Positions 9,672 through 56,051 are shown, counted from the first letter of the stretch. The stretch: 64,000 nt of DNA from Promethearchaeota archaeon (GCA_019058445.1 JAHPZA010000007.1:20129-84128), one strand, 5' to 3'. The notes: generated from the letters alone by a model not told the origin. A program made the numbers and translations.

Positions 9672-9991
9672 TTAACCAACCCTTTAAAATATCTTATCTC
9701 TAAGTTCTATAATTTTTTTTACATTTTTAAATGTTTGCGTTTTAACAATTGTTTGGTTAATAATGATATTAATTTTTTTTATTCCGTTTTCTATAAAATT
9801 TTAACTCTTTGATAGAATATTTTTGTCGGCTAATATAAGAAAAATTAAAAATTTTTATTCAACAGGTAGATTTTGAAAATTAAACCGATAAATTGATTTT
9901 TAAAAGCCTAATCTAAAATTCGTTGAATTTTTAAAGATATTAGAAAAGTTAATCGAAATATTTTAATAGGGGGTTTTTTTCATTTTAATTA

Positions 9992-10459
9992 ATGCGACAA
10001 ATTTATAAGTCACATGGAAAACACTGTTATCTCCGTTCTTTTAAGACTTCTTGTCCACGTTGTGGAGATGATGTTTTGTACTGGGAATGTACCCATGGAT
10101 GTAAGGTATTTTTCCAATATCCTCCATATGGGAGATTAATAAGACATATTTGTAAAAGATATGAAGGGAAGAGTCAAGCTTCTGGGAATAAATACCCGGT
10201 AATTGTAAAAAAACCAAAGGGTTTACTAGGAAAAGCCTCGCCTAGTTGTCCCGCTTGTGGAAAAATATTTAAAACAGAAGTGAATTTAAGGGAACATTTA
10301 AAACAACTAAAGAAATCTGATTATTTACATAAACTCTATTTTGGACAAGAGATAGTAATTGAAAATGAGAATGAGGTAAAAAATAAGATCCCAAATGAAA
10401 AAATAAGAATTCATTATAGACCTATTTTTGGGAGAATTAATGTAAAGAAGAAAAACTAA
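9992..10459 (+). CDS. zinc-finger protein (CxxC ribbon plus C2H2-like finger)
   Basis: CPRCG, CTHGC, CPACGKIF....LREH. Confidence 0.7.
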   Translation: MRQIYKSHGKHCYLRSFKTSCPRCGDDVLYWECTHGCKVFFQYPPYGRLIRHICKRYEGKSQASGNKYPVIVKKPKGLLGKASPSCPACGKIFKTEVNLREHLKQLKKSDYLHKLYFGQEIVIENENEVKNKIPNEKIRIHYRPIFGRINVKKKN

Positions 10460-10587
10460 GTGTTTTTAAAACTATTGCTATCCATAAATTTTTATTAAAA
10501 TTTTTATAATTATATTTATAAAAAAGTTTAAATCTAAGATTTTTATTATTATTGATGTATAAAAATCGAAAATAAGGAAATGAAAAA

Positions 10588-11193
10588 ATGCCAGTAGATC
10601 CCGCAACTGCTGTTTATAATTTAATGCAAGCAGATCCTCATATTATTGCCGCAACGGTTATTTCAGGCTCAAATGAAATAATTTATACAACAGATAACTG
10701 GGATATAAGTGCGGATATAGGCAGAGTCATTTCAAGTTGGGTTGCTCAGAATGCTCAATTTATAATGGTCTCTGGAGTAAAGTATTCTATGCTACAATGT
10801 GAACCGGAAAGACTCGTTGCTACCTCTATCCGTGGTGAGGGAAGTATTGTAGCTGCAAAAGATGATGAGCATAAATTAATTGCTTATCTTGAACCGGATG
10901 GATATGCCCCTGGAGCTGCTATGGATGTACAGAGAACGATTACTTCAATGAGTTCTAGATCGCACTATATGGGAGATGATGCTCAATTAGGTAAAAGTAT
11001 GCCTGCTGCAGCTTCGGCATCTCCAAGCATAGATCCTCAATTAAAAGGGGAAATTGAAGCATTTTTAGAATGGATCAAAGATACTGATGGACTTTCGGGC
11101 TATATAAATTATTATTTGCAGCAAAATAATGCCCAAATAATATCTGAGCTCTCAAAAATTTATAGTGAGTTAAGGCAGATTTTTGGAGTTTAA
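10588..11193 (+). CDS. Asgard profilin with C-terminal helical extension
   Basis: IIYTTDNWDI, GVKYSMLQCEPERLVATSIRGEGSIV resemble the Loki profilin core; linker plus ~55-aa helical tail. Confidence 0.8.
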   Translation: MPVDPATAVYNLMQADPHIIAATVISGSNEIIYTTDNWDISADIGRVISSWVAQNAQFIMVSGVKYSMLQCEPERLVATSIRGEGSIVAAKDDEHKLIAYLEPDGYAPGAAMDVQRTITSMSSRSHYMGDDAQLGKSMPAAASASPSIDPQLKGEIEAFLEWIKDTDGLSGYINYYLQQNNAQIISELSKIYSELRQIFGV

Positions 11194-11439
11194 CTTTTTT
11201 CTTAATTTTATGAAGTTGATATCAATTTAAGACTAGTGTAATTTTGAAGAACCAATGATATATAAGTTCAATTAAGCTTTTAATTCCTCTTTGTTAATAG
11301 GTAATGCTGTTAGGATTCAAATATTTTATTCATTACTTTGATGCCCGAAAATAACAATTATTAAATAAAATTTTTTCATTTTTTATTAAATCTTCAATTA
11401 TATCGATAAGTTTAAAATTTTATTAGCATTTTTGACCAT

Positions 11440-12516
11440 ATGGAAGTTGGCGTTATAGCTGCAAGTGGTTATGCCGGTGGAGAGGCTGTTAGGTTACTAA
11501 GTTATCATCCTAATGTGGACTTAACATACATAACCTCTCGGAAACTAATCTCTAAATATTTTCATTCAATTTATCCAAATTTTCGAAAAATCTCTAATCT
11601 GAAATTTGAGGAATATAATGTTGAAAAGGCAAAAGAAAAATGTGATATTGTATTTTTAGCGGTTCCTCATGGAGTTTCACAAGATATGGTTCCTGGATTA
11701 TTAGAAGCAGGGTTAAAAGTAATAGATTTAAGTGCGGATTTTCGCTTAAAAGATAAAACAATTTATCAACACTATTATAAAAAGGAACATTCTCATCCTG
11801 AACTCTTAGATAACGCAGTCTATGGCTTACCTGAATTACATCGTGAAGAGATTAAAAATGCAAATTTAATAGCAGTGGCAGGATGTCATGCTTCAAGCGC
11901 TATTTATGGTCTATATCCCTTAGTTAATGAGAATTTAATTGAAGTAAGTAATATTATAGTTGATTCGAAAACCGGATCTTCTGGCTCTGGCGCAGGCTTT
12001 AATGAATCAACTCACCATCCGATTAGAGCTAATAGCATTCGACCATATAAGATGACCGGCCATAGACATACTGCAGAAATAGAACAAGAATTAACATGTA
12101 TTCTTCAAAAAAATAAAAAACTAAATCAACAAGTTAAAGTGGGATTTTCTGCACATGGCGTCAATTTAGTACGAGGAATCTTGTCTACGTCCCATGTTTT
12201 TTTTAATGAAACACAAGAAATTGATGAGAAAATATTATTTAAAGCATATAGGATGGCGTATGATAAAGAACCATTTATACGATTAATTAATCAAAAAATA
12301 GGAACTTTTAGATTACCCGATCCAAAACTAATTAGCGGAACGAACTATTCAGATGTAGGGTTCCAAATTGATAAGAGAATGAATCGAATAGTAGTTTTAT
12401 GTACACTTGATAATTTAGTTAAAGGAACTGCTGGAAATGCTGTTCAATGCATGAATATAATGTGTGGGTTCCCCGAACGTTCCGGACTTGAATTTCCGGG
12501 ATTTTTCCCGTTATAA
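11440..12516 (+). CDS. argC: N-acetyl-gamma-glutamyl-phosphate reductase (ArgC/LysY family)
   Basis: ASGYAG, DLSADFRL, AVYGLPEL, GC, HRH..EI, DNLVKG.AG.AVQ. Confidence 0.93.
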   Translation: MEVGVIAASGYAGGEAVRLLSYHPNVDLTYITSRKLISKYFHSIYPNFRKISNLKFEEYNVEKAKEKCDIVFLAVPHGVSQDMVPGLLEAGLKVIDLSADFRLKDKTIYQHYYKKEHSHPELLDNAVYGLPELHREEIKNANLIAVAGCHASSAIYGLYPLVNENLIEVSNIIVDSKTGSSGSGAGFNESTHHPIRANSIRPYKMTGHRHTAEIEQELTCILQKNKKLNQQVKVGFSAHGVNLVRGILSTSHVFFNETQEIDEKILFKAYRMAYDKEPFIRLINQKIGTFRLPDPKLISGTNYSDVGFQIDKRMNRIVVLCTLDNLVKGTAGNAVQCMNIMCGFPERSGLEFPGFFPL

Positions 12517-12584
12517 CTGTTAAAGTTATTCTTATCTTCCCTTAATGTTAACCCTTAAATTTTATATCATTGAAGTAAGATCCC

Positions 12585-12803
12585 TTACGAGAGAAAAAAG
12601 CTCATCAGTATAACAATTAATATTGGAATTAGACATAACAAACCAACACATCCCACGAAACTATTTCTCCATTTTACATAATGATTTGGGTCCAAAATTA
12701 TACCACAATTAGGACATTGCTTGAGTGTAGGATTATTAATTTCTGTATTGCAATTATAACATTCAAAGATATCACTTTGATCATTAGGTTTTAGATTTGA
12801 CAT
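12585..12803 (-). CDS. zinc-ribbon membrane protein
   Basis: CYNC, CPNC and a C-terminal TM helix. Confidence 0.7.
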   Translation of the reverse strand: MSNLKPNDQSDIFECYNCNTEINNPTLKQCPNCGIILDPNHYVKWRNSFVGCVGLLCLIPILIVILMSFFLS

Positions 12804-12911
12804 ATAACAAGAATTCCTAAACTTGATATTTTGGAGTTTATTATTATACTATAATACTTAAATAAAATATAATTTTAAAAGAATTGCTAAAAATAGGTAT
12901 GAAAATTTAAA

Positions 12912-13715
12912 ATGTCCGGATACATCGGTAAAAGTATTAGAATGGAAAGAATTATGAATAGGGAAAACGGAAAAGCAATTATCATCCCAATGGATCATGG
13001 ATTAACCGTTGGACCCATCAAGGGAATTGAAAATAATTTGGGGGAATTAGTGAATAAGGTTGCCTTAGGTGGGGCGAATGCTGTATTAGGTCATATAGGA
13101 ATTCCATTATATGCGCACAGAGGGTATGGTCCTGATATCGGGTTGATATTACATCTCTCAGGATCAACCTCATTAAGTCCAATGTCAAATTATAAAGTGT
13201 TAGTAAATAATGTATTAGAGGCCGTTAAATTAGGGGCTGATGGAGTTTCGCTCCATATTAACATAGGGACTCAAGCTGATCCAGAGATGCTTGAAACTCT
13301 AGGCAGCGTTTCAAGAGAATGCAGGGAATATGGAATGCCTCTCTTGGCGATGATGTATCCTAGAGGCGAAAATATAAAGGATGAATATGATGTTCAAGTT
13401 GTAAAGATTGCTGCGAGGGTTGCTGCCGAATTAGGTGCCGATATTGTAAAAACAAATTGGACGGGAGATCCAGATTCCTTTAAAGAGGTGGTTAAGGGAT
13501 GCATGGCTCCGGTTATCATCGCAGGAGGAGAAAAGGCAGGAATAAGAGGGATATTAGAAATCACAAAGCAATCAATAGAAGTAGGTGGTGCTGGCGTAGC
13601 GTATGGCAGAAACGTTTTTCAAGCCGAAGATCCTACAAAAGTGGTAAAAGCCTTGTATTTAATTGTAAATAAAAATTATGAGGTAGATGAGGCCTATAGA
13701 GAAGCAAAGCTTTAA
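12912..13715 (+). CDS. DhnA-family class I aldolase, probably 2-amino-3,7-dideoxy-D-threo-hept-6-ulosonate synthase
   Basis: [35 protein letters not shown]. Confidence 0.85.
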
Positions 13716-13761
13716 TTTTTTTTTTAGTTTAGTTAATTAAATAAAAAATCTCATCAGAATA

Positions 13762-14124
13762 ATGATACCCCTAGTAAAAAAAGATATTTTAATTGAGAAT
13801 TTAAAAATTTATCTGGTCTTATTTAAGTTACATAATAGTTTCCTCTTGTTAATTTCTGATCAAAAAGAGATGGGCCTTGGAAATGTGACTCTGGGAAGCC
13901 CTCCATTGACCGAGGGATTAAAATCAATTTCAGCATCTTATAACTTATTCGGTGTTGATAAAAAATTATTAAGTACCATAATTTCTGAGAAAGCGTCTCA
14001 TATTTTGAAAAAACCCGTTTTATTACTCCTTTTCTTAAGAGATAAAATAAAAGAGGAAGAAATTGCAAAATCCCTTTTGAATTTTTTAATTGAAATTTTG
14101 ACAGAAATAGTTGAAAAAGATTAA
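13762..14124 (+). CDS. PAC4-like proteasome assembly chaperone (putative)
   Basis: NSFLLLISD, LGNVTL, LFG, KKPVLL pattern. Confidence 0.5.
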   Translation: MIPLVKKDILIENLKIYLVLFKLHNSFLLLISDQKEMGLGNVTLGSPPLTEGLKSISASYNLFGVDKKLLSTIISEKASHILKKPVLLLLFLRDKIKEEEIAKSLLNFLIEILTEIVEKD

Positions 14125-14192
14125 AATTAGAGAATTATTATATAAACATATAATATTCCGAGATCGCTGGTTAATAGTTAAAATCTCTTCAA

Positions 14193-14352
14193 GCAGGGAT
14201 AACCAAGCCTGGTCAACGGTGCCGGACTCTATTGAGATTTATTCTCATAAGCTGGACTCAAGATCTTTAAAAATTAATTTCCGTTGATATACCAACTCTG
14301 ATGAGATATCCGGTCTCATAGGAGTACGTGGGTTCGAATCCCACTCCCTGCA
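14193..14352 (+). tRNA. tRNA-Leu(CAA), two introns (14228-14257 at 32/33; 14263-14307 at 37/38)
   Basis: GCAGGGA/TCCCTGC acceptor stem, long variable arm, GTTCGAAT; two BHB motifs give the mature arm CCGGA-CTCAAGA-TCCGG. Confidence 0.85.
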
Positions 14353-14358
14353 TCTAAT

Positions 14359-14476
14359 GCGGGAATTGCCAAGTCTGGTTAATGGTGTTTTCGAGCTTTT
14401 TCGAAAGCCGACTTGAGGCGCTGGACTTAGAATCCAGTCTTGTAGAAGTTCGGGGGTTCAAATCCCTCTTCCCGCA
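14359..14476 (+). tRNA. tRNA-Leu(TAG) with D-loop intron (~14383-14415)
   Basis: GCGGGAA/TTCCCGC acceptor, CTGGA-CTTAGAA-TCCAG; hairpin insert before the 3' D-strand. Confidence 0.9.
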
Positions 14477-14648
14477 TAAAAATATTAAAAATGATGAGGG
14501 TAATTATTTTCTTGTTTGAAACTCATAATGGAAAATTTTTAATTTCTTAATTGATTTAAACATCTACCTAGCAAACTAGTTAATTATGATTTTTTTAAAG
14601 GAAAAACCTTAGTTAACTATCATTCTAAAATTTGCTGGTATTTACACA

Positions 14649-14753
14649 GCTCTCGTAGTGTAGCTCGGCCAAAGTCTCCTTGATTCCAAAGGTGACAGCG
14701 AGGCATGCTAGGCTTTCACCCTGGTGACCCGGGTTCAAATCCCGGCGAGAGCA
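14649..14753 (+). tRNA. tRNA-Glu(TTC) with D-loop intron (~14673-14702)
   Basis: GCTCTCG/CGAGAGC acceptor, CTAGG-CTTTCAC-CCTGG, CCGGG-TTCAAAT-CCCGG. Confidence 0.9.
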
Positions 14754-14789
14754 TCCAACGCTTTATGCGTTTATGCATTGGAAAACCAA

Positions 14790-14956
14790 GCCTCCGTAGC
14801 TCAGTTAGGTAGAGCACTGAGTATTAATCATGCTCAGCCCGCCCAAAGCACCCGGCTTTCATAATTGATTACCAGTATGACCGGAAGTTAACCGGGCGGT
14901 CGCATGTTCGATCCATTAGTGATTCGAATTCCGATTCGCTGGATAAGCCGGGGGCG
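14790..14956 (+). tRNA. tRNA-Asn(GTT) with three introns (~14813-14846 D-arm; 14858-14886 at 33/34; 14917-14946 at 63/64)
   Basis: GCCTCCG/CGGGGGC-G acceptor; removing the inserts restores CCCGG-CTGTTAA-CCGGG and GCATG-TTCGATC-CATGC. Confidence 0.85.
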
Positions 14957-15128
14957 TACTTTATTCCCTATTGCTTTTTATTTTAAAAATTTGATCTTTC
15001 CTGCACGACCATCATTTTTTCTTTATATATTTTCAAAATATTCAACAATAAATTTTCTACTTAAAAATAGCATAATAACCATTTCAATCGTAAATTTAGA
15101 GATTAATTCGATATTAATAGGTGATTCA

Positions 15129-15467
15129 ATGGAAGGAGGAAAGAAAGGATATATAGTACTCTGGATATTCATGGGAATAATTTTATTTATAACTATACTT
15201 TATCCCATTTTTGGCATAAATTTAAAATATCAGATTGGAACTGCTATAAGCACAACGCTTATAAAATTAGGAAGCATTTTGATTATGGTAGGGACTATAA
15301 TCCTTATTTTAGGCTTTATTATGTTATTTATCTCTGGGACAGGTTCAGGAGCGTTAAAACCAATGTTAATCGGGTTCTTTTTAATAGTTCTGGGAGTAAT
15401 ACTTATTGATCCGATGGGTACAAGCTATTTCACTCAAGGCAGAGAGGCCCCGAAAGGATATCATTAA
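15129..15467 (+). CDS. small membrane protein with VirB2/CedA-like hairpin (true start ATG 15129)
   Basis: GGTGAT Shine-Dalgarno before MEGGKK; three hydrophobic segments; the longer ORF overlaps tRNA-Asn. Confidence 0.75.
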   Translation: MEGGKKGYIVLWIFMGIILFITILYPIFGINLKYQIGTAISTTLIKLGSILIMVGTIILILGFIMLFISGTGSGALKPMLIGFFLIVLGVILIDPMGTSYFTQGREAPKGYH

Positions 15468-15564
15468 TATTAATTAGAATTATGTTAATTCTGCCTTGAA
15501 TAAAAAATAACATAGTGTTTTTTAGAGATAAAAGTCAAATTCCCACATAAAAAATTCAACAAAT

Positions 15565-18558: not shown

Positions 18559-18577
18559 TTTTGTCGGAGTTTTTATA
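18559..18577 (+). promoter_or_regulatory. TTTTGTCGG motif plus TATA box upstream of the ATPase operon
   Basis: TTTTGTCGG-AG-TTTTTATA, same spacing as at 23558. Confidence 0.55.
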
Positions 18578-18614: not shown

Positions 18615-21443
18615 ATGATTTTTTTTTCTAAATATCTTATAATTCTCTTAGGTTTTTTAGTATTTTTTCTTCTCCTAACACCATTCTATTTAAGAATTAA
18701 GGAAAAGAGGGAGAAAACAAGAGCTTATGAACTATATTATTTGTTTCTAGGTATTTTGATATACATTTTTTCTTTTTTAGAAACAGTTATATATCCACTT
18801 TCGGATAATTCACCCTTTCTATTAATAATTGAATTAGAAATGGTTTTCATTTTATTTCTTTTCAACATACTGTATTATTTTAGTCAACAAAACGCTCAAG
18901 ATGAATGGACTACTATTTTATATCTAAGTATTATCATTTTACTTTCTCACATAGTTATTTGTGGAATTTATTTATCATTTTTAGTAGGAACTATTATTTC
19001 TCTTTTCATTGCATTGTTAAGTTTTACTATCATAATTCCATATAATAAGGACTGGAAATTAAGAGGTAATCTCATTATTTTTTCCTTATTAATTTATTAT
19101 TCACTTATAGAAAATATACTCTTTATCTCAATTATTTCATTTTGTATCACTATAACACTTGTTTCCCTTGTACACGATGAGATCCGCTTAAGAATTGTAG
19201 CTGTATATCCGGGATTGATAATAATTCTTAAGCGTATAATCTTTAGACCTAAAATCCTTATGAATAAATTTAGCATTATTTCAGATATAGAAAAACCTAA
19301 GAATTTAAATACAAATAAAAAAGTTAAGTTTTTCCAAGTAAAAGTTAAAATAATCCAGAGAAAACTTGAACAAGAACAAGATCCGTTAAATCTATATCAA
19401 TTGAATGAAAGAAGTTTTTTAATTGATCTTCTCCCAGTAAAAGCCACTTATGTTCTTGAAATTATATCTCATAAAAAATTTTCCTTATCATTTATAACAA
19501 AACATAGGAATAAAGAAAAAGCTCACGAACAAGGTTTAACGATATTAACTAAATTAAAAAGTCTTTATGAGGGAATTGATGGGGAAATAAGCGTTATTAA
19601 AATCTCTAGCAAGGAAATCTACAAAAAGGATCGATATTGGGAAATTAAAATCCCCAAACCACCATTCATAGAGAAAATGACGTTTATTAGGGATATTATA
19701 AATCTTTTTGATTTAAATGAAGAAAAAATAGAGATTTATATCATGTGGAAGCGAGTCTCATCATTAAACCAATTTAGAATAAAAAAAATACGAGAGGATG
19801 TAAGAAATATAAAATTTAATGATGCAGATGAGAAGGAGAATTTCTTAGAAATGTGGCAAGGAGATCTTTATAAATTGAGAATTTTTTTCACTTTCAAAGT
19901 CTTTGAAAAAGATGTCAGATTAAGAAATCAAAAAATCCGAGAAATTGAAGCCATGCTAAAGACTCTCGCTATGTCAAGTAGAAATGAGACTAAGATAGCT
20001 AAAATTAAAAAAGCTTCACCTTTTGCAAATGCAAACATCATAAGTAATAGATTATATGGAGGTCGCTATATAACATCTAAAAGCTTGGACTTTGATGTTC
20101 TTCATGGAATTCCTTTACCTCGATCTTACGCATTGGAAGATGAGAATATTATTAATTTGGATGTAGAAGACCATGATTTAAATTATATTTTAATTGGAAA
20201 TTATATTAGAAATGGACGGGTTTCAGAAAAAAAGATTCCAATTCATAAAAATATATTTAGTCAATCAGTTTTAATAGGTGGGCAACCGGGTTCAGGAAAG
20301 ACTTACCTTTTGAGCCAAATTACAAAAGAATTTTATACCAAATGTCCAGATATTGGGATAATGATTATTAATTTAGGAAAAGGGAATCAAGAATTACTTT
20401 ACAAATTTGATAAAATTTATAAATATGGGAAATCAAATTTAAGAGTTCCTTATTTTATCAGGGGAAAATTTCCAAGAAGGAGTTTACAAGAAACTGCTAA
20501 GTATTTAGTTGCTGCGGTTGGGTTAAAAAACATTGTTGAGATAAATATGTTTAATGTAATGCAATTATTTGAACAAAAAAGGGGACAGCCCAAAACTGCT
20601 AAAGTACTTTTTAATAATTTATTAAAATACTTTGAATTTCGACCATATCATTCCAAATTTCAAACAAATATCATAAGAGCGATAGAAAATCGAGTTCTGA
20701 GTATGTTATCAGATATGAGACTAGAAAAAACATTAGAATTATATAATAATCCCTATAAAATGCCATCATGGTTTGAGGAATGGCGAAAGGGTAAAAAAGT
20801 ATATATTGATTTATCTAGTTGCACAATCTATGAAAAAAGACTATTATGTAATGCAATTTTTCAAATTGTTCGATCTTGTGTACCAGATAAGGAGGAAGGT
20901 AATCTAAAAAACATCATTCTTCTAGATGAAGCACATCAAATCTTAGAAAAGCCTTCTTTACCTGCTGATCCTGACGATGATGATTATATTAGCAGACAAT
21001 CGTTAAAGGATATTTTTAATGAATTATTAAGGGAATTTCGTTCTAAGGGCGTTTCATTTATAATATCAGACCAAACACCATATACTTTATTCGATTGTGC
21101 GACAATATTGCCCAGTTTAAAATTTCTTTTCAGATTAGGACATTTATCGGCGTCTATTATGGGTTCAAATGAAAAAGAAGAAGCTCTTTTACCAGAACAA
21201 GAAAATAGACATTTTATCGTAGTAAACGGTGTAACTGGCGAAAAATATAGAGGAAAAACTCTTGATTTGCCCATTCCAACAAGATTATATAATAAAAGGA
21301 AGCAATTTGAAAGGGAATATGAAAATACAAACAAATTTTGTCAATTTTGTCATCAGATCATAGATATTGATGCTGTTTTCTGTCATAGATGTGGGAGCAA
21401 ATTAATTTATGATACCTTTATAAATTCAAATTCAAAATTATAG
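18615..21443 (+). CDS. membrane-anchored HerA/FtsK/VirB4-superfamily ATPase (likely start ATG 18615)
   Basis: about six N-terminal TM helices; GQPGSGKT, IILLDEAH, REFRSKG...DQTP; C-terminal CxxC..CxxC ribbon. Confidence 0.88.
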   Translation: MIFFSKYLIILLGFLVFFLLLTPFYLRIKEKREKTRAYELYYLFLGILIYIFSFLETVIYPLSDNSPFLLIIELEMVFILFLFNILYYFSQQNAQDEWTTILYLSIIILLSHIVICGIYLSFLVGTIISLFIALLSFTIIIPYNKDWKLRGNLIIFSLLIYYSLIENILFISIISFCITITLVSLVHDEIRLRIVAVYPGLIIILKRIIFRPKILMNKFSIISDIEKPKNLNTNKKVKFFQVKVKIIQRKLEQEQDPLNLYQLNERSFLIDLLPVKATYVLEIISHKKFSLSFITKHRNKEKAHEQGLTILTKLKSLYEGIDGEISVIKISSKEIYKKDRYWEIKIPKPPFIEKMTFIRDIINLFDLNEEKIEIYIMWKRVSSLNQFRIKKIREDVRNIKFNDADEKENFLEMWQGDLYKLRIFFTFKVFEKDVRLRNQKIREIEAMLKTLAMSSRNETKIAKIKKASPFANANIISNRLYGGRYITSKSLDFDVLHGIPLPRSYALEDENIINLDVEDHDLNYILIGNYIRNGRVSEKKIPIHKNIFSQSVLIGGQPGSGKTYLLSQITKEFYTKCPDIGIMIINLGKGNQELLYKFDKIYKYGKSNLRVPYFIRGKFPRRSLQETAKYLVAAVGLKNIVEINMFNVMQLFEQKRGQPKTAKVLFNNLLKYFEFRPYHSKFQTNIIRAIENRVLSMLSDMRLEKTLELYNNPYKMPSWFEEWRKGKKVYIDLSSCTIYEKRLLCNAIFQIVRSCVPDKEEGNLKNIILLDEAHQILEKPSLPADPDDDDYISRQSLKDIFNELLREFRSKGVSFIISDQTPYTLFDCATILPSLKFLFRLGHLSASIMGSNEKEEALLPEQENRHFIVVNGVTGEKYRGKTLDLPIPTRLYNKRKQFEREYENTNKFCQFCHQIIDIDAVFCHRCGSKLIYDTFINSNSKL

Positions 21444-23557: not shown

Positions 23558-23576
23558 TTTTGTCGGGATTTTTATA
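23558..23576 (+). promoter_or_regulatory. TTTTGTCGG motif plus TATA box; probable leaderless transcript
   Basis: TTTTGTCGG-GA-TTTTTATA ending ~21 nt before ATG 23598. Confidence 0.55.
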
Positions 23577-23597: not shown

Positions 23598-24212
23598 ATG
23601 ATATCTCAGGAAAATTCAGATTCTTCGGACCCATTTTCCGTTTTTCAATCGGTAAATGACGCCATAGTGGGAATATTAGTCCCATTTAACGAGATTTGTA
23701 TCAATATTTTTCGTTTTGGAAACTGGATTTTATTTCTTATTTTTATATTTTTAGGAGTAAATCTATTAATGAGTGCCCATGAAAAAGAAACTGAAGAAAG
23801 AATTCACGGAAAAAACTTAGAGTATATTCAAAAAAGAGGTCGTATTGGATCTTTTATTTTAATTTTAATAGCCATTGGTTTCTTATTCAAAGGACTAACG
23901 ATACTAACGATAATTAGCTTTAGTTCATTTTCAGCTCCGCCCGTTTTTCGATGGCTAAAATGTCAATATCTATATAATAATATAAGTACGTTAGAGGACC
24001 TGAAAAAGTATGATGTCTTTGAAGTAAGTTTATTTCTATTTATTAGTTTAGTGTCTTTCATTTCAATAATTCTAATTAGTTTTGGTATTTATCTTCTTCT
24101 TTTTAATAAGAGAATTCTTAGAACACATTATAAAGCTTGTTCATTCATTGTTATTGGAGTTATTTTAGCTTGTATCTTTGGGATTACTCCAGGATTACTC
24201 CTAACTTTGTGA
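23598..24212 (+). CDS. 4-TM membrane protein (two hairpin units); paralog of 27684..28301
   Basis: shared AIG, PPxF, KYxxFE, SF, NxRI and FG motifs. Confidence 0.8.
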   Translation: MISQENSDSSDPFSVFQSVNDAIVGILVPFNEICINIFRFGNWILFLIFIFLGVNLLMSAHEKETEERIHGKNLEYIQKRGRIGSFILILIAIGFLFKGLTILTIISFSSFSAPPVFRWLKCQYLYNNISTLEDLKKYDVFEVSLFLFISLVSFISIILISFGIYLLLFNKRILRTHYKACSFIVIGVILACIFGITPGLLLTL

Positions 24213-24251: not shown

Positions 24252-24776
24252 TTATGATTTTAATTGTTTTTCATATAAATCTTTGATATATTCATTTAAT
24301 TCTTTAAATTTCATTTCATTAATCGTCGTTAATTTATCTTCTTCCCAGTTAAAGGTAGTCATACTCTTATCTGGTTTATGGTTGAATTCTAAATCTTCAT
24401 ACTTAGGTACAAAATCCTCATTAAAATCCTCTTGATCCTTAAATTCATCATCTTCTTCTATAGTGTTATCAATTGCCTCATATTCACTAAAAGATAACCT
24501 TTTTAGAAAAAAATATACTAAAATACAAAGAAAGATAAACACAAGATTACTTGGAATTACTGTTTCTGAGGTTAAAATTACATCTGTTTTATTATACAAA
24601 TTAGGAAGTGAATTTAGGATATAAAAACTCACTGATAACAATATTAACACAGTTATTACGAGCTTTAATCTGTGAAATGTAGGTTGATAAGCTTGAACTT
24701 TATAGAAAACGGCTATTGAAATAGCTAAAGCTGTAGTTAAAATAACAAATGTTAAAAATAATTCGAATGTGACCAT
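24252..24776 (-). CDS. 3-TM membrane protein with acidic tail
   Basis: three hydrophobic segments followed by an E/D-rich C-terminus. Confidence 0.75.
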   Translation of the reverse strand: MVTFELFLTFVILTTALAISIAVFYKVQAYQPTFHRLKLVITVLILLSVSFYILNSLPNLYNKTDVILTSETVIPSNLVFIFLCILVYFFLKRLSFSEYEAIDNTIEEDDEFKDQEDFNEDFVPKYEDLEFNHKPDKSMTTFNWEEDKLTTINEMKFKELNEYIKDLYEKQLKS

Positions 24777-25062
24777 CTCTATCTTTTTCTCTTTATGATC
24801 CTATAAATCGCCTTATCGATATCAATTAATTATTTAAAATTAAGTATAAAAAGTTCGAGATTTATCCATGGCAGTTATAAAAAGTAAGTAAATTTACTAA
24901 ACCAGTTTTTTTTTTAAATTGAGAAATTTATATTTTTATAAGATTAGACTAATTAGATCTTTTTGTCGATAATACTTCGATTTTATAATTTTCATTTTAT
25001 TATTTTACAAATGAGCTAACAGTGAGATTAAATAGATTACATAGTTTTAAGTAATAAGCAAA

Positions 25063-26589
25063 TTAATCTTTAAAATAATTAAAAATAACTTTAAGAATTA
25101 AGTCTTTAAAACATTTTAACACTTTTTCCCCTTCTAACGCGCATACTGGATACACTACTAAAGAACCATCAGGATATTTAATTTCGTTAGGTAGATTTAA
25201 GATTCTTTTAAATATATCTAATGAAATCGCATTATCTAAATCTCTCTTATTTAGTTGCACGTTTATAGGGACTCTGAGATGTCCAATGGTATTTATTAGT
25301 TCCTGAAAGCTTTGTTTGTTTTGTTCCATCTTGGAAGGATCAGAATCACCTATAAAAATCACTCCGTCAGCGCCCTCAAGGATCCGCCTGCGAGCTACCG
25401 AAAAATTTTCAAGGGCAGGAACAGTTACAATTTGAATAATTACCCCATATTTAGTATCCTCAATTTCAAACTTTAATAAAATATACTGAGAATCATGCCA
25501 CAGTGTTGAACCGTTAGTGGTTTCAATGGAATATCCTTTGGTTAAATTCATAGATGAAAATTTTTTTTGTAGTAACTTAAAATTAGAGGTTTTTCCGGAT
25601 TTAGAAGGGCCCCAAAAAATTATTCTAAATTGTAGGATTTCATCACAATTTTTTAAGCTTCGATTATCTTTAGCTTTTTCAATTTCATGATCTATATACT
25701 TAGTTAATTCTTTATATCGTTTCCTAATCGTAGCTTCGGTTACTCCAGCTGCTAAAGAAATTTCTTTTTGGGTTCTTCGTTCTCCCTCCTGTAGCGCAGC
25801 AAAATAGAGTGCCCCCCCAGCAAGCCCAGCAGGAGTTTTTCCGGCGGTGAGTCGATACTTTTTTGCTAAATTTAATATTTTCGTGGCACGATTTTTCGTA
25901 TTTTCTGAGAGATTAAGATTAGCTGCAAATTTGGGAATATAACTTAAAGGTGAACTTGCATTAAGATTTAGCTTTAATTCTCTGAAGACAAGTCTATAAC
26001 ACCGGGCTAGTTTTTTTTTCTCAATAGCAGTAAATTCCAAAAAGTCTTCAATAATTTTGGGGACATTATTAATTTTGCATGCTGTATAAATTGAAGCTAT
26101 CACAATGGCCTCAATGGATCGACCTTTAGCAAGATGCATTACTTTTCTATAAATATGAGCTGAAGATTCCTTTAGATATTTTGGCAAATTCATTTGAGAT
26201 GAGATTCTGTCTAATTGAGTCATTGCTTCCGCTAAGTTTTTCTCTTTAGGCGTATAAATCATCGATCTTTTATTCCAAGTTCTTAGCCTTTTGATTTCTC
26301 CAATCATTTTCGGACTAATTTTGTTCCCTTTAGCATCTCGATTCGATTTTCCAATGACCGTGTTTAAACCTTTATCATATTGCATTAAATTCGTTGGAGC
26401 TCCGATTCTAACTTTTTTTGCCTTATCTTCTGAGTTAAAAGCACGCCAATCAACCCCAGAATTAATAAGATGTTGCTTAATTACCAATCCACATGCGTTA
26501 CAAATGATTTCGCCGCGAAAAGCATCATTTATTAATATTTCATTCCCACATTCAGGACATATATCTGAAACTTTTTCTGCGACATTCAT
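25063..26589 (-). CDS. TFB fused to C-terminal MglA/Arf-like small GTPase domain
   Basis: complete TFB (CPECG, DWRAF, GVTEATIRKRYKEL) then GPSKSGKT, GADGVIFIGDS, NKRD, CA in one frame. Confidence 0.9.
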   Translation of the reverse strand: MNVAEKVSDICPECGNEILINDAFRGEIICNACGLVIKQHLINSGVDWRAFNSEDKAKKVRIGAPTNLMQYDKGLNTVIGKSNRDAKGNKISPKMIGEIKRLRTWNKRSMIYTPKEKNLAEAMTQLDRISSQMNLPKYLKESSAHIYRKVMHLAKGRSIEAIVIASIYTACKINNVPKIIEDFLEFTAIEKKKLARCYRLVFRELKLNLNASSPLSYIPKFAANLNLSENTKNRATKILNLAKKYRLTAGKTPAGLAGGALYFAALQEGERRTQKEISLAAGVTEATIRKRYKELTKYIDHEIEKAKDNRSLKNCDEILQFRIIFWGPSKSGKTSNFKLLQKKFSSMNLTKGYSIETTNGSTLWHDSQYILLKFEIEDTKYGVIIQIVTVPALENFSVARRRILEGADGVIFIGDSDPSKMEQNKQSFQELINTIGHLRVPINVQLNKRDLDNAISLDIFKRILNLPNEIKYPDGSLVVYPVCALEGEKVLKCFKDLILKVIFNYFKD

Positions 26590-29804: not shown

Positions 29805-30440
29805 TTAACAAAACTTATATTTAAATGGATTATATTTCTTTTCTTCTCCTATTGTGGTAATTCCTAAATGTCCCGCTAAAATTAAAAAGTCCTCACTTAA
29901 TTTTGGATTATAAATCAGTTTATTTCTAATGTTTGAACAGAGTAATTCTTCATTTCCTCCTGTGAGATCAGATCTTCCTTTATCTCTTCGAAAAATTAAG
30001 TCTCCCGTAAAAACTAATCCATCATATTCTCTGTTTTTGAAAAGCGTAATATCTTTACTGTACAAACTAATATTACCTGGAGAATGCCCTGCGGTTTCCA
30101 TGATATGTAAATTAATACCGTTGATATTTAAGACATCCTCCTCTCTCAGCCAATTATCTGCTCTCATCCATTTAAAAATTTTAAAATATTATAATTCCTT
30201 TTTATTATACCATAAGGGTACGTTATATCGCTGCATTAACGGTTTCAAAGTTTTTGTATGATCTGGGTGTGTATGAGTTAATATTATTCCAATTGGCTTA
30301 TATTGTAAAAGATCCAATTTATTAATAATTCTATTTGCCTCTCCGCCAGGTTCTATGATATAGACTTCTTTTTTCTTTGCAGATCCAATGATATAGCAAT
30401 TTGTTTCATATGGCCCTACTACAAGTTTTTCTAAAATCAT
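29805..30440 (-). pseudogene. MBL-fold (glyoxalase II/YcbL-like) hydrolase interrupted by an in-frame TAA
   Basis: THTHPDH in the 5' part, GHSPG/FTGD/GH in the 3' part; both in one frame, TAA at 30189-30191. Confidence 0.8.
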
Positions 30441-36401: not shown

Positions 36402-36656
36402 ATGGCAAATAAAATGATGATTAAAGAATATTTTGAACTCAAAGAATTTATAACCCCGATTCAAAATAACTTAATAAAAGCATTACAACAAATAGGGCCC
36501 TCTACTAGAAGAGAGTTGGTTAGTTATCTAAATACTCCTAGGACGACAATCTATGATAATTTATTGAAATTACAAAAAAGAAAAGTTGTAGAAAAATTTA
36601 CACGAAATAATGGGAAAAGAGGGCGTCCAGTAGTTTTTTGGAAATTTGCAGGTTAA
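36402..36656 (+). CDS. small winged-HTH (TrmB-like) regulator
   Basis: STRRELV..LNTPRTTIYDNL, GRPVVFW; GGAGG Shine-Dalgarno. Confidence 0.85.
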   Translation: MANKMMIKEYFELKEFITPIQNNLIKALQQIGPSTRRELVSYLNTPRTTIYDNLLKLQKRKVVEKFTRNNGKRGRPVVFWKFAG

Positions 36657-37023
36657 TTTTTTTTTATATTTTTTTTTTTTTCAACTTTTTTTTAAAAAAT
36701 AAGATAAATAGGTTTTACTATTGATTTAATTTTCTATTCATAAAAATATTATATAGTCCTAAATTTCCATTGCAAATTTATATAATTAAATGTGAAAATG
36801 ATAAAGTCTATAAATAACTAATTAAATGGACCCCATTGAAAATATCTTTCGTAATATTTAAATTTAGTTATTACCTCTTTAATTTTCATCAATTTTCATG
36901 ATATTACTTCAAAAGACAAGAATATAAAATTTGCAATGGAAATTATGGAGTGTCAATAAAATTTTGCATTTATAGTATGAATTAAATTTTTCTAAATTTT
37001 ATATAATATAAAATAAAATAGTT

Positions 37024-50070: not shown

Positions 50071-50079
50071 AAAAGGATT

Positions 50080-51603: not shown

Positions 51604-51614
51604 TTTATTATGGA

Positions 51615-51914
51615 TTATTGAGTGATAAATAAATATAGTAATTGAACGAGTAAAAAAAAGCCAATAAAAAGATTAATAATTGTAGAATAAAAAAAAAGGA
51701 CTTTAAAAAAGAGCTTATTTTCAAGATTATTTGCAAAGATTAAGCAATTTAATTTATCTAATAAAAGAAAAAGTGGTAATAAAAGGATTATATAAATAGA
51801 TAATGATAAGCAAGTAGTAATGGTATCGCTAGAGATTGCTGAATAAATAAATATTATAATATAAAGCAGAATTATAACTAAAATCTCAAATACAACAATA
51901 CTTATTTCAGACAT
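51615..51914 (-). CDS. small 3-TM membrane protein
   Basis: hydrophobicity pattern. Confidence 0.6.
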   Translation of the reverse strand: MSEISIVVFEILVIILLYIIIFIYSAISSDTITTCLSLSIYIILLLPLFLLLDKLNCLIFANNLENKLFFKVLFFYSTIINLFIGFFLLVQLLYLFITQ

Positions 51915-52136
51915 AATTATGAATTATCCTATTTAAGTAACTATCTTAATATTTCCTTTAAAACAACTATATTTTTATGAAAAATGATTCAATACCACAG
52001 CGATTTCTTCTATATAATCAGTAAGCTGTTTCTAAAAGAAGTCCCCTTTTTATCGCAAATTCAAAGATAAAATATAAATAAACAAAGAGATTAAATGAAT
52101 TTGTCTTAGGTAAAAAATCTTTTATAACAAGAATTA

Positions 52137-52637
52137 ATGATTATAATAATGAGAAATATAAAATTGAAAGGTTTGAAATATAGTAGAGGAAAATATTTAT
52201 TATTTGATGATCGCTTTATATTCTTCCCTCCTCAGTTGATTGATATTTTAGCATCTATCTATGGTGAAGGGGTAAAGTCCTTATTAGTATGGTTAGGAAA
52301 AAAAACAGGGTGGACGTTATCCCAGAATTGGGAGGAAAATTTAAAACCAAAAAATTTAGATGATTTAGTAAATCAATTTAGTAATATATTAAGTAATCAA
52401 GGATGGGGTATTTTCGTTCCAAAACAAATCTCTGATGAGCTTATAATCATAGAACATTATCATAATATTTCTTCGGAATTAGAGAATAAATCCAGGTATT
52501 TTTGCTATTTCATAACGGGAATATTATCTGGTTTTGGGGAATTTGCGTTATACCGCACAAATGTTCACGAACAAAATTGTAGTATTGAAAATCCGAGTTT
52601 AGATTATTGTGAATACAGAATTGAGAAAATTCATTAA
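52137..52637 (+). CDS. V4R / TRAPP Bet3-like domain protein
   Basis: LGKKTG, QGWG, CYFITGILSG, EQNC......CEY. Confidence 0.8.
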   Translation: MIIIMRNIKLKGLKYSRGKYLLFDDRFIFFPPQLIDILASIYGEGVKSLLVWLGKKTGWTLSQNWEENLKPKNLDDLVNQFSNILSNQGWGIFVPKQISDELIIIEHYHNISSELENKSRYFCYFITGILSGFGEFALYRTNVHEQNCSIENPSLDYCEYRIEKIH

Positions 52638-52648
52638 CAAATTTGAAC

Positions 52649-53041
52649 TTACCAAGGATCCCATTCCTCAGGATTTAATTCTTCAGTATCATCATCCTTA
52701 ATTGATTTTTCAGTAGAATCATGATTAATCTGATATAATTCTTGTTTTAATTCTGGAAATTCTTGTGTGTCATTTACCTTAGTTTCAATTGTGTTAAAGT
52801 TATTATCTAAAATTATAGCTTCATCACCAATTACCACATCTTTAAAAGCAGCAATTAATGAGAGGAATTTAAGAAATTCTTCTTTATTTATATTCACCTT
52901 AGTGGAATTTTCTTTATTTATAAGTGCGAGTTTTATCATCCGAACTTCACCACTAATCTCAACAGAAGTTATTTCTATAAATTCATCTGTATTGTGTAAT
53001 TGAATTTTCCATGATGTCTCTCTTTTTTTTTCAATTTCCAT
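52649..53041 (-). CDS. hypothetical protein with acidic tail ending EEWDPW
   Basis: 130-aa ORF. Confidence 0.7.
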   Translation of the reverse strand: MEIEKKRETSWKIQLHNTDEFIEITSVEISGEVRMIKLALINKENSTKVNINKEEFLKFLSLIAAFKDVVIGDEAIILDNNFNTIETKVNDTQEFPELKQELYQINHDSTEKSIKDDDTEELNPEEWDPW

Positions 53042-53262
53042 AATTACTTCTTCTGTTTGTATAATTAATAAATCTCATTAATTAAATAACAATATATAAA
53101 TTTAAAATTTTATATCATTAGGATATTTCGTGTTGAATGATAGATGCATTTTTACTATAATATAAAGTAATATATCTTAGAAAAATGAAGCTTTCATGAG
53201 GGTATTGAACTATCAGTTTAAAAATAAATTAAAAAATATAAAAATCATGCATAGTTAAGAGC

Positions 53263-53577
53263 TTAGAGTAGTTTTTCTAAAAATAGGTCCTGAATGAAAT
53301 CTACAAACTCTTCATTTTCAACAATATCTTTTAGAAGGTTATTCAGTTCATTAATTTTAATATTTTTTGAAATCTTCTTCATTATTGCTTTTAAATCCCC
53401 TTCTTTTTCGAAATCATTTAACTCCGAGATCTTTTTAAACAGATCATGATTTTCCGAATTTTTCAGAAAAATTTGAAATTTTTCAAATATTGTATCATAG
53501 TCTCCCTCATCAAATTTAAACTCTGAAATTAATTCGATGGATTGATCCAGATTTTTTTTAGTGATATCTTCATTCAT
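53263..53577 (-). CDS. hypothetical acidic protein
   Basis: 104-aa ORF with GAGGT Shine-Dalgarno. Confidence 0.65.
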   Translation of the reverse strand: MNEDITKKNLDQSIELISEFKFDEGDYDTIFEKFQIFLKNSENHDLFKKISELNDFEKEGDLKAIMKKISKNIKINELNNLLKDIVENEEFVDFIQDLFLEKLL

Positions 53578-53626
53578 TTTTTAATTTACCTCATATTGTT
53601 TTAAATTAATCTTTTAAAGGAATTAT

Positions 53627-54325
53627 TTAAATTACGATTATTAAAAACAAGATTAAAAAGTATGAAATAAAACATATTAATGTCAGTGGAGGTCTATACA
53701 TACCTAAAAACTGTAATTTTCTATTCTGATTATTATATACGATAAAAAGATAGTCGATGTAAATTTTTTCTCCTTCAAAATCCGTTAATTTTGATAAAGC
53801 AAAAAACTTATAGAACGATTTAATAAACAATTTTCTAAGAATTGATAATTTAACATCAAAAATGTAAAATACTCCAAATGCGTAAGAATTATTTTTCATA
53901 CTATTATGAACTAAATTAATAAAAAACATAATTAAGAAAAAAAGTGAAAAAAAAAAAAAAAAAAATACCACGAAATAATAATTTAGATATCTAATGGGAT
54001 GAACTGAAAATATCAAAAGAAATAATTTTCCATCACTCCCTCCTATAATTTTTAGAGAAAATAACACAAAAGAAAATAAAAAAATTATACAAAAAAAAAG
54101 TATTTTTAAGAGTAAAATCAGCAAAATTTCACTATAAAAAAACACCATCTCTACTGTATTTAGAAAGATAGAAAAACAAAAACATGTTCTTAGGAATCTA
54201 TTTGAAATTTTTCTAAATTTAAGGTCAAGATACACCGAAATTAATAAAATAATGGTTATAAAACAAATATCTATAAAAATTATCCATGATAACATGAAAT
54301 TATAAATCGCCTTCCCAAATTTCAA
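53627..54325 (-). CDS. A24 prepilin peptidase (TadV/FlaK-like)
   Basis: SVYLDLKFRKISN, GGSDGK, C-terminal PPL. Confidence 0.8.
   Translation of the reverse strand: MKFGKAIYNFMLSWIIFIDICFITIILLISVYLDLKFRKISNRFLRTCFCFSIFLNTVEMVFFYSEILLILLLKILFFCIIFLFSFVLFSLKIIGGSDGKLFLLIFSVHPIRYLNYYFVVFFFFFFSLFFLIMFFINLVHNSMKNNSYAFGVFYIFDVKLSILRKLFIKSFYKFFALSKLTDFEGEKIYIDYLFIVYNNQNRKLQFLGMYRPPLTLICFISYFLILFLIIVI
53947..53965 (-). repeat. T19 homopolymer within the prepilin peptidase CDS
   Basis: A19 on the + strand; encodes FFFFFF. Confidence 0.9.
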
Positions 54326-54593
54326 TAAACTTTTTCAAATATCTTGCTTTTACATTTTCATTTTTATATCTATAAATTTTAATCCGGCCAAACTTTTTTT
54401 CTTGAACTAGATTTGTTCGCTTTAAGAAGTTTAAATGTTTTAAGACGATAGTGTGATTTAGATTTGTTTTGGTAATAATGAGAGAAATATTCAACTCATT
54501 ATTTAACGCAAGCATTTTTAAGATCTTTATTCTTGCTCTGGATCCTAATAAATCTTCAATATGGTTTAGTTCTTTTTGTTCATTAATAATCAT
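54300..54593 (-). CDS. ArsR-like winged-HTH protein
   Basis: LLGSRARIKIL, HL..L....LV, FGRIKIY; ATGA overlap with cdc6. Confidence 0.85.
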   Translation of the reverse strand: MIINEQKELNHIEDLLGSRARIKILKMLALNNELNISLIITKTNLNHTIVLKHLNFLKRTNLVQEKKFGRIKIYRYKNENVKARYLKKFIEIWEGDL

Positions 54594-55795
54594 ATTTTCA
54601 CGCCCTTAGAATTCAAAATATCTCTAACTATCCTTTCAAATTTCAATAAAGGGATATCTGGAATTTCAATTAGTGCTTTTCTTCCCCTAATTGATTTACT
54701 TTGCAATTTTACATATATAAGCTTTTCCTTTTTATATTCTTGGAGGTAATTCCATAATTGAGAATATGATCTAGGTCTCAAACCAGCATTTTCACACAAT
54801 ATTAAATAAGGTTTTAAAATTTCTAAAAATGTAATTCTATTTTCATTATTGGTTTTTAAGTGAAGTATCGTAGCCAATAAAAAAATTAATTTTTGGGAAG
54901 TCATGTCTTTTAAGATGTCTAATGTTGAAAAAGGGACCATGTCTTGGTTCGCAAGTCTTATACATTCAGAGCTAATTAACTTTAAATTTTTATTTTCCGC
55001 TATTTTACCTGCTTTCCATAGTAAGTTTAAACCATATCTAATGTCTCCATTCAGGGACACTATATCTGAAATCATTTCAATCAACTCATCAGATAAAACA
55101 TTTTTTTTGAAACTTATTTCAGCTCTATATTTTAAAATATCAAAAATTTGTTCATTTGTATAATTTTCAAACCTTATTATGTTTCTTTGTAATGTACTTA
55201 ACGTACTATTATCTAAATTATTAATACATGAAACATCTCTTACAATTCCTATTAAAGAGATCCTTTGTGGCACATTGTAAGAATCATCGTTTAACCTCGT
55301 TAAGGAATAAATCAAATCATTATCATTATTAATTAAATAATTTAACTCATCTAGAATAATTAAAATATGAAGATTATGGGTATTGAGAAAATCGTCTATA
55401 ATCTCTAAAAGGTCTTGAGGCGAATAACCTCTCTTTGGAAAACTCTTATTAATTGATCTTATTATTTTTATCATTACTTTATAACTAGTACGTTCTTTTC
55501 GACAATTTACGTGAATATAACTAATCGAGATATCCTTTTTTTTTGCTGCTTTAACTAATAAATTTCCAAAAAATTTTACAGTCACAGTTTTGCCTATTCC
55601 AGTTCTCCCTGTTACGAGAACTTTTCGAGAGATCTCGTTTGGATTTGTTAATAATGTTAAAAATAGTTGCGATAGTAATGATAATTCTTTATTGCGATGA
55701 GGTAATGTATCTGGAATAAAATTTATATCTAATTTGCGTTCATCCTTGAAAATAGAGGGCTTATTTAATAGATTTTCAAATATATCCACACTCAT
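54590..55795 (-). CDS. cdc6: Orc1/Cdc6 replication initiator
   Basis: IPDTLPHR, GRTGIGKT, ILDELN, GDIRYGL, C-terminal winged helix. Confidence 0.95.
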   Translation of the reverse strand: MSVDIFENLLNKPSIFKDERKLDINFIPDTLPHRNKELSLLSQLFLTLLTNPNEISRKVLVTGRTGIGKTVTVKFFGNLLVKAAKKKDISISYIHVNCRKERTSYKVMIKIIRSINKSFPKRGYSPQDLLEIIDDFLNTHNLHILIILDELNYLINNDNDLIYSLTRLNDDSYNVPQRISLIGIVRDVSCINNLDNSTLSTLQRNIIRFENYTNEQIFDILKYRAEISFKKNVLSDELIEMISDIVSLNGDIRYGLNLLWKAGKIAENKNLKLISSECIRLANQDMVPFSTLDILKDMTSQKLIFLLATILHLKTNNENRITFLEILKPYLILCENAGLRPRSYSQLWNYLQEYKKEKLIYVKLQSKSIRGRKALIEIPDIPLLKFERIVRDILNSKGVKI

Positions 55796-56051
55796 AATGC
55801 TTAACCCACAGAATTTATATTATCACAAACAACTTATTATTTAAAAGAAAACACAGAGTAGTAATTTTTTAATATCTTTTTTTAGTTTTTTTTTATGAAG
55901 GGGCCATCATATTATTTACTTCTTCTGTTCTCTTTTATATAAAATAGATATTATCTTTCGAAGTTTAATCATGGGGCAATTCTGTATTTTGTCGGTTTAA
56001 CATTTTTACTAAAATTATTGTGTTTTATACAAAGTTTTGTTATAAAAATGT

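Follow-up and report, generated by a model that had tools for sequence, protein, structure and literature searches.

A putative operator word shared by histone, ribonucleotide reductase and replication initiator genes in a Lokiarchaeia-type order of archaea

Introduction

Archaeal transcription factors act at operators and upstream activating sites with an effect that depends on position, as at the sites of Ptr2 and TrmBL1. Replication initiators can also be coupled to promoters: DnaA boxes are present at the bacterial nrd and dnaA promoters, and Sulfolobus Orc1-2 is associated with a damage-response promoter element. Here we analyze a short word, TTTTGTCG(G/A/T) (the box), that recurs in a 64,000-nt stretch of DNA from a Promethearchaeota archaeon (the window, G000:C7:20129-84128), in the neighborhood of a gene for a TFB paralogue (tfb), of the initiator gene cdc6 and of a gene island. 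For the Sulfolobales, the relevant parts of the published accounts of cell-cycle control name TFB2, the ribbon-helix-helix (RHH) repressors aCcr1-3 with their aCcr1-box and the ArsR-type protein CCTF1 (10.64898/2026.09.06.749720, PMC13736083), and the corresponding part of another paper deals with haloarchaeal CdrS (PMC8406309). In the literature that we searched, no promoter motif, regulon or origin box is described for Asgard archaea, and origins are not treated in the available part of a paper on replication (PMC12680538).

The box is enriched between genes, the enrichment is repeated in relatives and the word is conserved in orthologous promoters, which together lead us to regard the motif as real. 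With a probability that we put at roughly three in four, it is the place where one sequence-specific regulator docks, as an operator or an upstream site, and this regulator would be shared by two or more families of the order. Most likely, the box marks genes that are switched together by one DNA-binding protein, as yet only predicted.

Materials and Methods

The genome that contains the window (G000) has 4.61 Mb in 10 contigs and a G+C content of ~31%. Coding and intergenic DNA were separated with a rough open reading frame (ORF) caller that took the longest non-overlapping ORFs of at least 70 aa, giving 86% coding and 13.75% intergenic DNA. As relatives, 20 genomes of the Lokiarchaeia-type order were counted, and up to 30 copies per genome were fetched with 1.5-kb flanks. 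G005 and G006 belong to the same genus as G000, G018 and G020 to family f2, and G014 (44% G+C) to family f3. The genes flanking intergenic sites were clustered across genomes by BLASTP and annotated with Pfam and NCBIfam, and the recurrent targets were then traced through orthologous loci.

De novo expectation-maximization motif models drifted, one to a generic TTTAAA word and the other to G+C-rich RNA genes, and fixed words were therefore used for the analysis of the box. For the blind survey, the intergenic words of G000 were scored against an order-3 Markov model of intergenic DNA. Maximum-order word statistics proved insensitive, the signal being carried by sub-words. The tRNA promoters were considered as an anchor for the TFB recognition element (BRE) and the TATA box and dropped, the ARAGORN calls being messy in this intron-rich genome (only 23 genome-wide, as expected for multi-intron Asgard tRNAs). 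All assignments of TATA boxes and transcription start sites are predictions from sequence.

Results and Discussion

Enrichment of the box between genes

The 9-mer TTTTGTCGG, which is the form of the box that recurs in the window, is found 30 times in G000, and 13 of these copies are intergenic, against the 13.75% of the DNA that falls in this class. Of the 504 words with this composition, no other has as many intergenic copies (they average 1.7, with a pooled share of 6.8% between genes), and 9 of 26 copies are intergenic when the four of the window are left out. The blind survey recovered the same signal at three lengths: TGTCGG appeared 50 times against 23.0 expected (rank 3 of 2,056 intergenic 6-mers), TTGTCGG 33 times against 10.1 (rank 5 of 6,306 7-mers) and TTTTGTCGG 13 times against 2.0 (rank 20 of 15,660 words). 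Their neighbors in the ranking include T-runs, TATA-type words and a tRNA-like word.

Single substitutions delimit the word. Changes at positions 5-7 of TTTTGTCGG bring the counts back to background, those at positions 1-4 leave a weaker enrichment (intergenic share 0-33%), and position 9 tolerates G, A and T while the enrichment is lost with C. The variant TTTTGTCGA is likewise enriched between genes (13 intergenic and 21 coding copies in G000). From this pattern we define the box as TTTTGTCG(G/A/T), with a core TGTCGG and a T-rich 5' flank; the flanks hold little information. In this degenerate form it has 97 copies in G000, 36 of them intergenic, and of the latter 20 lie in divergent spacers, which represent 32.8% of the intergenic length (P = 4e-3), and two in convergent ones. 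The orientation of TGTCGG is mildly biased toward the downstream gene (34 of 46 sites, against ~28 expected by our own estimate). Paired inverted boxes with arms 5-31 nt apart, as well as tandem copies, are present in several genomes. A near-identical box-bearing stretch of ~75 nt was also seen at C1:78184 and C9:191933 of G000, in front of two paralogous 274-aa genes at a distance of 67 nt, which indicates that the promoter was duplicated together with the gene.

The enrichment was repeated in four relatives belonging to two families, where 47-68% of the copies are intergenic: 17 of 25 in G005, 13 of 25 in G006, and 16 and 14 of the 30 fetched from G018 and G020, respectively. One locus of G005 (L082, G005:C24:2681-5689) includes an ORF-poor region of ~1 kb with five boxes in ~200 nt (~1500-1700), among them the perfect inverted repeat TTTTGTCGG-TTTCT-CCGACAAAA; this could be a strong operator cluster, the promoter of an RNA gene or an origin-like region.

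These figures bear on the alternative that the box is a product of chance or composition, a T-rich word accumulating between genes without any function. The window by itself would not contradict it. The preliminary description of this DNA had estimated well under one chance copy per window, and shuffling agrees (0.38 copies of TTTTGTCGG expected, four reached in 1 of 100 shuffles), but the local clustering is not significant on its own: compared with the genome rate, the local enrichment of TTTTGTCGG ranks 38 among the 33,277 distinct 9-mers of the window (p = 6e-4), with 37 others at least equal, and its one-mismatch variants are not enriched (11 found, 12.3 expected). Since, in addition, the word was picked post hoc, the four copies are no proof when taken alone. 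Moreover, the total numbers of TTTTGTCGG in most of the 20 genomes equal those of the reversed control word. Against all this, the first rank among words of equal composition, the repetition in four other genomes and a core that stays invariant inside the diverged spacers of up to 12 genomes (see below) make a chance origin extremely improbable.

Conservation at histone, regulator and ribonucleotide reductase promoters

A first target is the histone gene at C4:87147-87356, in which the box is found in all 12 family-f1 orthologues ~50 nt upstream of an invariant AAAATCTTTAAATA. In eight of them the box is forward (TTTTGTCGT or TTTTGTCGA) and in four it is inverted at the same place (CCGACAAAA in G006 and G009, TCGACAAAA in G005 and G001). 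The matches to histones in relatives predicted that the histones of G000 would have the box, and on checking this held: they bear a variant box 156-160 nt upstream in two of three cases; the background is 1.2% among the 3,257 G000 genes with a usable upstream spacer. In the second of these genes the word is TTTTTTTGTCGA, 48 nt before the predicted TATA box, and the third has no box. The box is likewise present at tailed histone genes in G018 and G020. No histone was found in the long spacer C6:656052-657819.

A second target is a 73-aa RHH regulator (C6:849719-849940; Pfam RHH_1), whose best NCBIfam match is CdrS at 44 bits, below the cut-off of 100, and which matches aCcr1 weakly. Its promoter has the box in 10/10 f1 orthologues, ~30 nt upstream of CTTAAATATCACC, as TTTTGTCGG in nine of them and as TTATGTCGG in the remaining one. 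A word of the same promoter block resembling an origin recognition box (ORB), TTTCCANTGAAA, was considered separately and discarded, as the window shows no enrichment of it (9 copies against 6.8 expected).

Both ribonucleotide reductase (RNR) classes are represented as well. The anaerobic enzyme gene, nrdD, has CCGACAAA(A) 50-110 nt before its start in 7/7 f1 genomes, ~55 nt downstream of a conserved AAATTTTTATATC block that we predict to be the TATA block. In other Asgard families nrdD is immediately preceded by a small gene, which leaves no spacer to compare. The class II RNR gene has one box in G000 and two in G005. Finally, a RadA-like gene, a DNA methyltransferase and an Mrr-like protein have the box recurrently, in two genomes each.

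The position in nrdD, apparently downstream of the TATA block and thus within a long leader, is what a signal acting in the transcripts (for example, a leader element bound by a protein) would predict. However, the strand is not constant, as an RNA signal would require: the coding strand reads TTTTGTCGG for the RHH gene, the zinc-protein gene described below, the island genes and the G000 histones, and CCGACAAAA for cdc6 and both RNRs. The box also flips between orthologous histone promoters and lies upstream of the TATA box in those of histone and RHH genes, so that an RNA-level role is very improbable.

Conservation at the cdc6 and tfb loci

CCGACA(A), the box core as read on the other strand, precedes cdc6 in two families (8 of the 12 orthologous loci), at shifted positions: 140-210 nt from the start in f1 and 40-50 nt in f2, where the box directly follows a TATA-like word. 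Among the 12 loci, it was not found in G006, G012 and the two f4 genomes. In G000, two of the three cdc6 paralogues have the box core upstream. At the cdc6 loci of six f1 genomes a separate block, AAAA(T/C)T(A/C)TTAC(T/A)C(T/C)..., followed by TTATAAA, was observed ~70 nt upstream (window 55796-55900); judging from its sequence, the AAAA(T/C)T(A/C)TTAC block plus TTATAAA is probably the cdc6 core promoter. The block has related words (ACTACTCTA, TACTCTATA and GGACTCTAT) that rank among the 9-mers with the highest local enrichment in the window.

Such sites next to an initiator gene bring to mind an ORB-like element, bound by Orc1/Cdc6 for replication rather than transcription, and the ORF-poor spacers with three to five copies in both orientations (G005 C24; G018 C2 and C10) fit with it, as do the boxes upstream of the eight cdc6 loci and of the two G000 paralogues. 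Yet each of the eight box-bearing cdc6 spacers has a single copy, where an origin of this type would have several around an A/T-rich unwinding region, most copies are distributed over the promoters of unrelated genes, and the conserved histone, RNR and RHH sites do not adjoin cdc6. An origin element is, therefore, a highly unlikely explanation.

In the divergent spacer between tfb and a gene for a 155-aa zinc protein, the 11-mer ATTTTTGTCGG is invariant in nine genomes of two genera while its flanks have diverged. It is missing from this locus in G010 and G012, both of which have a short spacer, and in families f2-f4. The zinc-protein gene is present as a single copy in 20 of the 21 genomes of the order and is divergent from tfb in f1. 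Its product has two zinc modules, CxxC...HxC and CxxC-x12-H-x10-H, with invariant Cys and His residues; it matched no family, and its structural model (predicted local distance difference test score, pLDDT, 62) gave no fold match at E <= 0.001. Of the 15 TFB-like BLAST matches of G000, the box is present only at that of 8745..9647; at a second match there is a variant of it, 329 nt upstream.

The window copies and the BRE alternative

The preliminary description had reported four exact copies of TTTTGTCGG in the window, at 9821, 18559, 23558 and 55987, and a near copy at ~24961. All were found, the four exact ones on the + strand and the near one as TTTTGTCGA (Table 1). It had further noted that the copies at 18559 and 23558 precede TTTTTATA by exactly 2 nt (18570-18577 and 23569-23576), that the gene starting at 24776 has TCG-N3-TTTTTATA (the minus strand upstream reads TCG-AAC-TTTTTATA), and that the copies near tfb (9647), cdc6 (55795) and the 24776 gene are inverted with respect to them, for which we measure 174, 192 and 185 nt from the respective starts; these details were confirmed.

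Table 1. The box and associated genes in the window (positions counted from its first nucleotide).
Feature	Position	Strand	Remarks
Box ATTTTTGTCGG	9819..9829	+	Divergent tfb/155-aa zinc-protein spacer; same direction as the zinc-protein gene
TFB paralogue, 300 aa	8745..9647	-	Pfam TFIIB 2e-44 plus Zn ribbon; flanks the box-bearing spacer
155-aa zinc-ribbon/C2H2-like protein, single copy	9992..10459	+	Other flank of the box-bearing spacer
Box TTTTGTCGG + AG + TTTTTATA	18559..18577	+	Predicted promoter of the island ATPase gene
942-aa island protein, accessory gene	18615..21443	+	Weak P-loop/HerA-like signal (Pfam AAA and DUF87, both weak)
Box TTTTGTCGG + GA + TTTTTATA	23558..23576	+	Predicted promoter of the 204-aa island gene; start codon 32 nt past the box
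204-aa island gene	23598..24212	+	No Pfam, NCBIfam or PHROG match
Variant box TTTTGTCGA	24961..24969	+	Antisense to the 174-aa gene 24252-24776, 185 nt upstream
Box at the cdc6-wHTH operon	55987..55995	+	Reads CCGACAAAA on the strand of cdc6, whose start is 192 nt away
Orc1/Cdc6 gene	54590..55795	-	Pfam Cdc6_lid and Cdc6_C; conserved box target
97-aa ArsR/SmtB-type winged helix-turn-helix (wHTH) gene	54300..54593	-	Overlaps the cdc6 stop by 4 nt; candidate binder

The arrangement in front of the island ATPase is preserved in its G008 orthologue (42% aa identity), which keeps TTATTGTCGG-AG-TTTTTATA (TGTCGG-AG-TTTTTATA). This 942-aa gene is patchy among relatives, and a paralogue at C6:522427-524367 has TTTTGTCGT ~250 nt upstream. 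No usable orthologous promoter was found for the 204-aa gene.

The island promoters are the basis of one of the two interpretations proposed in the preliminary description, in which the word takes the place of the common purine-rich BRE and is recognized by a TFB paralogue, defining a regulon like that of a sigma factor. In favor of it are the three promoters with the box exactly 2 nt before TTTTTATA (18559, 23558 and the G008 orthologue), an A/T-rich word 1-3 nt past the box in the zinc-protein promoter, the abundance of TFB-like matches in G000 (the 15 mentioned above) and the TFB paralogue that drives a cell-cycle wave in Sulfolobus, according to the relevant part of the source (10.64898/2026.09.06.749720). 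Outside these promoters, however, the fixed geometry disappears. Among 83 pooled intergenic sites from six genomes, the 2-nt spacing is found in two, both in the window, and TATA-like 8-mers show no enriched offset on either side of the box. The box stands ~50 nt upstream of the TATA box in histone promoters (inverted in 4 of the 12 orthologues) and ~30 nt upstream in RHH promoters, and it is downstream of a TATA-like word in f2 cdc6 and of the TATA block in nrdD; it is co-directional with some targets and antisense to others. Besides, the part of the Sulfolobus account dealing with promoters gives similar BREs for TFB1 and TFB2 (10.64898/2026.09.06.749720). As both the TATA distance and the orientation vary, the box is not a BRE in our opinion, and an alternative BRE is an improbable reading: a word in BRE position need not be a BRE.

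What stands from the preliminary description is a genuine non-coding regulatory motif linking tfb, cdc6 and island genes; of the two interpretations it offered, the predicted operator fits and the BRE read by a TFB paralogue does not, since the 83 sites have no preferred TATA spacing and the orthologous promoters vary in position and orientation. Of the two properties that it proposed to look for genome-wide, the intergenic enrichment is present but the fixed spacing to TATA is absent.

Proposed mechanism and points against it

An operator fits with the enrichment near promoters, the survival of the box through sequence turnover, its tolerance to inversion and its several distances, four properties that speak against a core-promoter element, against an RNA signal and against a classical origin (there is a single copy at cdc6). 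We infer both the binding of a protein to the box and the sign of the regulation. The regulator would bind within or close to the core promoters of a conserved group of genes comprising histones, class II and class III RNRs, Orc1/Cdc6 with its partner wHTH, the CdrS-like RHH protein and a RadA-like protein, plus one TFB paralogue with its divergent zinc-protein neighbor and accessory genes such as those of the window island. The box would function at variable distance and in either orientation. Judged by position alone, the effect could be activation from upstream sites (histone, RHH) and repression where the box adjoins the TATA box or lies past it (island genes, f2 cdc6, nrdD).

Several observations weigh against a single conserved regulon of this kind. 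In G014, 21 of the 30 fetched copies fall in ORFs and nine are intergenic; the genome-wide totals are 81 for TTTTGTCGG and 12 for the reversed control word, and some of the TTTTGTCGG copies belong to repeated families (L021/L038 and L023/L030). In family f4 the box was not found upstream of cdc6, of the zinc-protein gene or of the RHH gene. The label "intergenic" itself depends on the rough ORF caller, by which at least one real site (C6:849619) was miscalled as coding. The targets in G000 are mixed, including also major facilitator superfamily transporters, ADP-forming acyl-CoA synthetase-like proteins, actin, a methyltransferase, a TrmB-like regulator and unknowns. Lastly, none of 12 further replication or chromatin genes of G000 has the box upstream (MCM, PCNA, two PolB, two RadA, three further RadA-like genes, cdc6-3, the histone on C10 and a second nrdD-like gene), from which it follows that the conserved core is formed by histone, RNR, initiator and regulator genes and not by the whole replication machinery.

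Candidate regulators

The named candidates for the predicted regulator are products of the targets themselves. The 97-aa wHTH gene accompanies cdc6 at 12/12 loci in three families, its start overlapping or closely following the cdc6 stop. The protein has profile matches to CzrA and HlyU, and its model (pLDDT 86.9) retrieves HlyU, PagR and CzrA with Foldseek. Such a conserved pair suggests that the wHTH could be a replication-linked regulator or an accessory factor. Family f4, in which the cdc6 box is missing, has a different recognition helix and wing in this protein, a weak hint that the wHTH is the binder; even so, we regard this candidate as doubtful, if the first among those that can be named. 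An Orc1/Cdc6 paralogue, attractive by analogy with DnaA boxes and Sulfolobus Orc1-2, comes next and is unlikely. The CdrS-like RHH and the 155-aa zinc protein, both of them conserved targets, could be self-regulated; the former is a still less likely binder and the latter the least likely of the four. That the box is read by something else is a possibility that we would place, tentatively, ahead of any of them. No regulator gene was found beside the paired or clustered sites when the multi-site loci were searched for a binder. The winged helix of E2F/DP (PF02319) had no match in G000, a result of little weight because control genomes gave none either.

A broader reading, which we consider possible but tentative, is that the box defines an S-phase-like, initiator-coupled Asgard regulon. 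One factor, possibly Orc1/Cdc6 or the ArsR-type wHTH, would couple histone supply, deoxynucleotide synthesis (by both RNRs) and the level of the initiator, and would also control the CdrS-like division regulator and a TFB paralogue. If true, this regulon would correspond, in a prokaryote of the lineage closest to eukaryotes, to the eukaryotic G1/S program (E2F/MBF targets) and to the control of nrd by DnaA boxes in bacteria. Should the targets be co-regulated with replication, they would give a first look at how chromatin, DNA precursors and the start of replication are coordinated in the closest archaeal relatives of eukaryotes. The box provides a testable handle: a probe of 9-11 bp, a short list of conserved targets and four named candidate binders.

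Other observations in the window

The genes of the window are a Loki-type Asgard set: a profilin-like protein, roadblock and GTPases of the Arf/Ras type are encoded, as are three TFB paralogues. Among these paralogues, that at 25063-26589 (-) is fused to a C-terminal Arf-like small-GTPase domain (Pfam TFIIB 2.9e-36, Arf 2.9e-9). An inverted pair of TTTCCATTGCAA, 167 nt apart (36764-36775, +, and 36931-36942, -), lies in the spacer between a small TrmB-like wHTH gene (36402-36656) and a class II aldolase gene and may be a separate operator. Two adjacent ORFs of 120 and 83 aa (29805-30440, -), each matching a part of the metallo-beta-lactamase fold, look like a split or frameshifted gene. A cluster of intron-bearing tRNAs for Trp, Lys and Val was called at ~14190-14760 on the + strand (C7:34321-34881; ARAGORN with introns allowed).

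Comparison with known systems

The archaeal BRE resembles the box at three promoters, where the latter occupies the BRE position 2 nt before TTTTTATA; elsewhere, the box differs in having no fixed position or orientation. The likeness is wider with archaeal operators such as those of Ptr2 and TrmBL1, also short, enriched between genes and kept in orthologues, with an orientation and a distance to the TATA box that vary, and occasionally in pairs. The box departs from them in being an asymmetric word of 9-11 bp with no obvious dyad, and its factor is a prediction.

Initiator-coupled regulons (DnaA, Orc1-2) share with our case one short box at the gene of the initiator itself and at RNR genes. 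The differences are that histone genes and an RHH regulator are targets here as well, that the rest of the replisome is not, and that Orc1/Cdc6 is only a candidate binder. As far as the available accounts of the Sulfolobales circuit go, it also has a short box common to cell-cycle-type genes, an RHH gene and a tfb paralogue among the targets, and an ArsR-type wHTH as a player; the box described here parallels it in its presence at an RHH gene, a tfb and the cdc6-wHTH operon. The same accounts give division genes (cdvA, cdvB) as the targets of that circuit, whereas here they are histone, RNR and Orc1/Cdc6 genes, the two boxes being compared by their targets and not by their letters.

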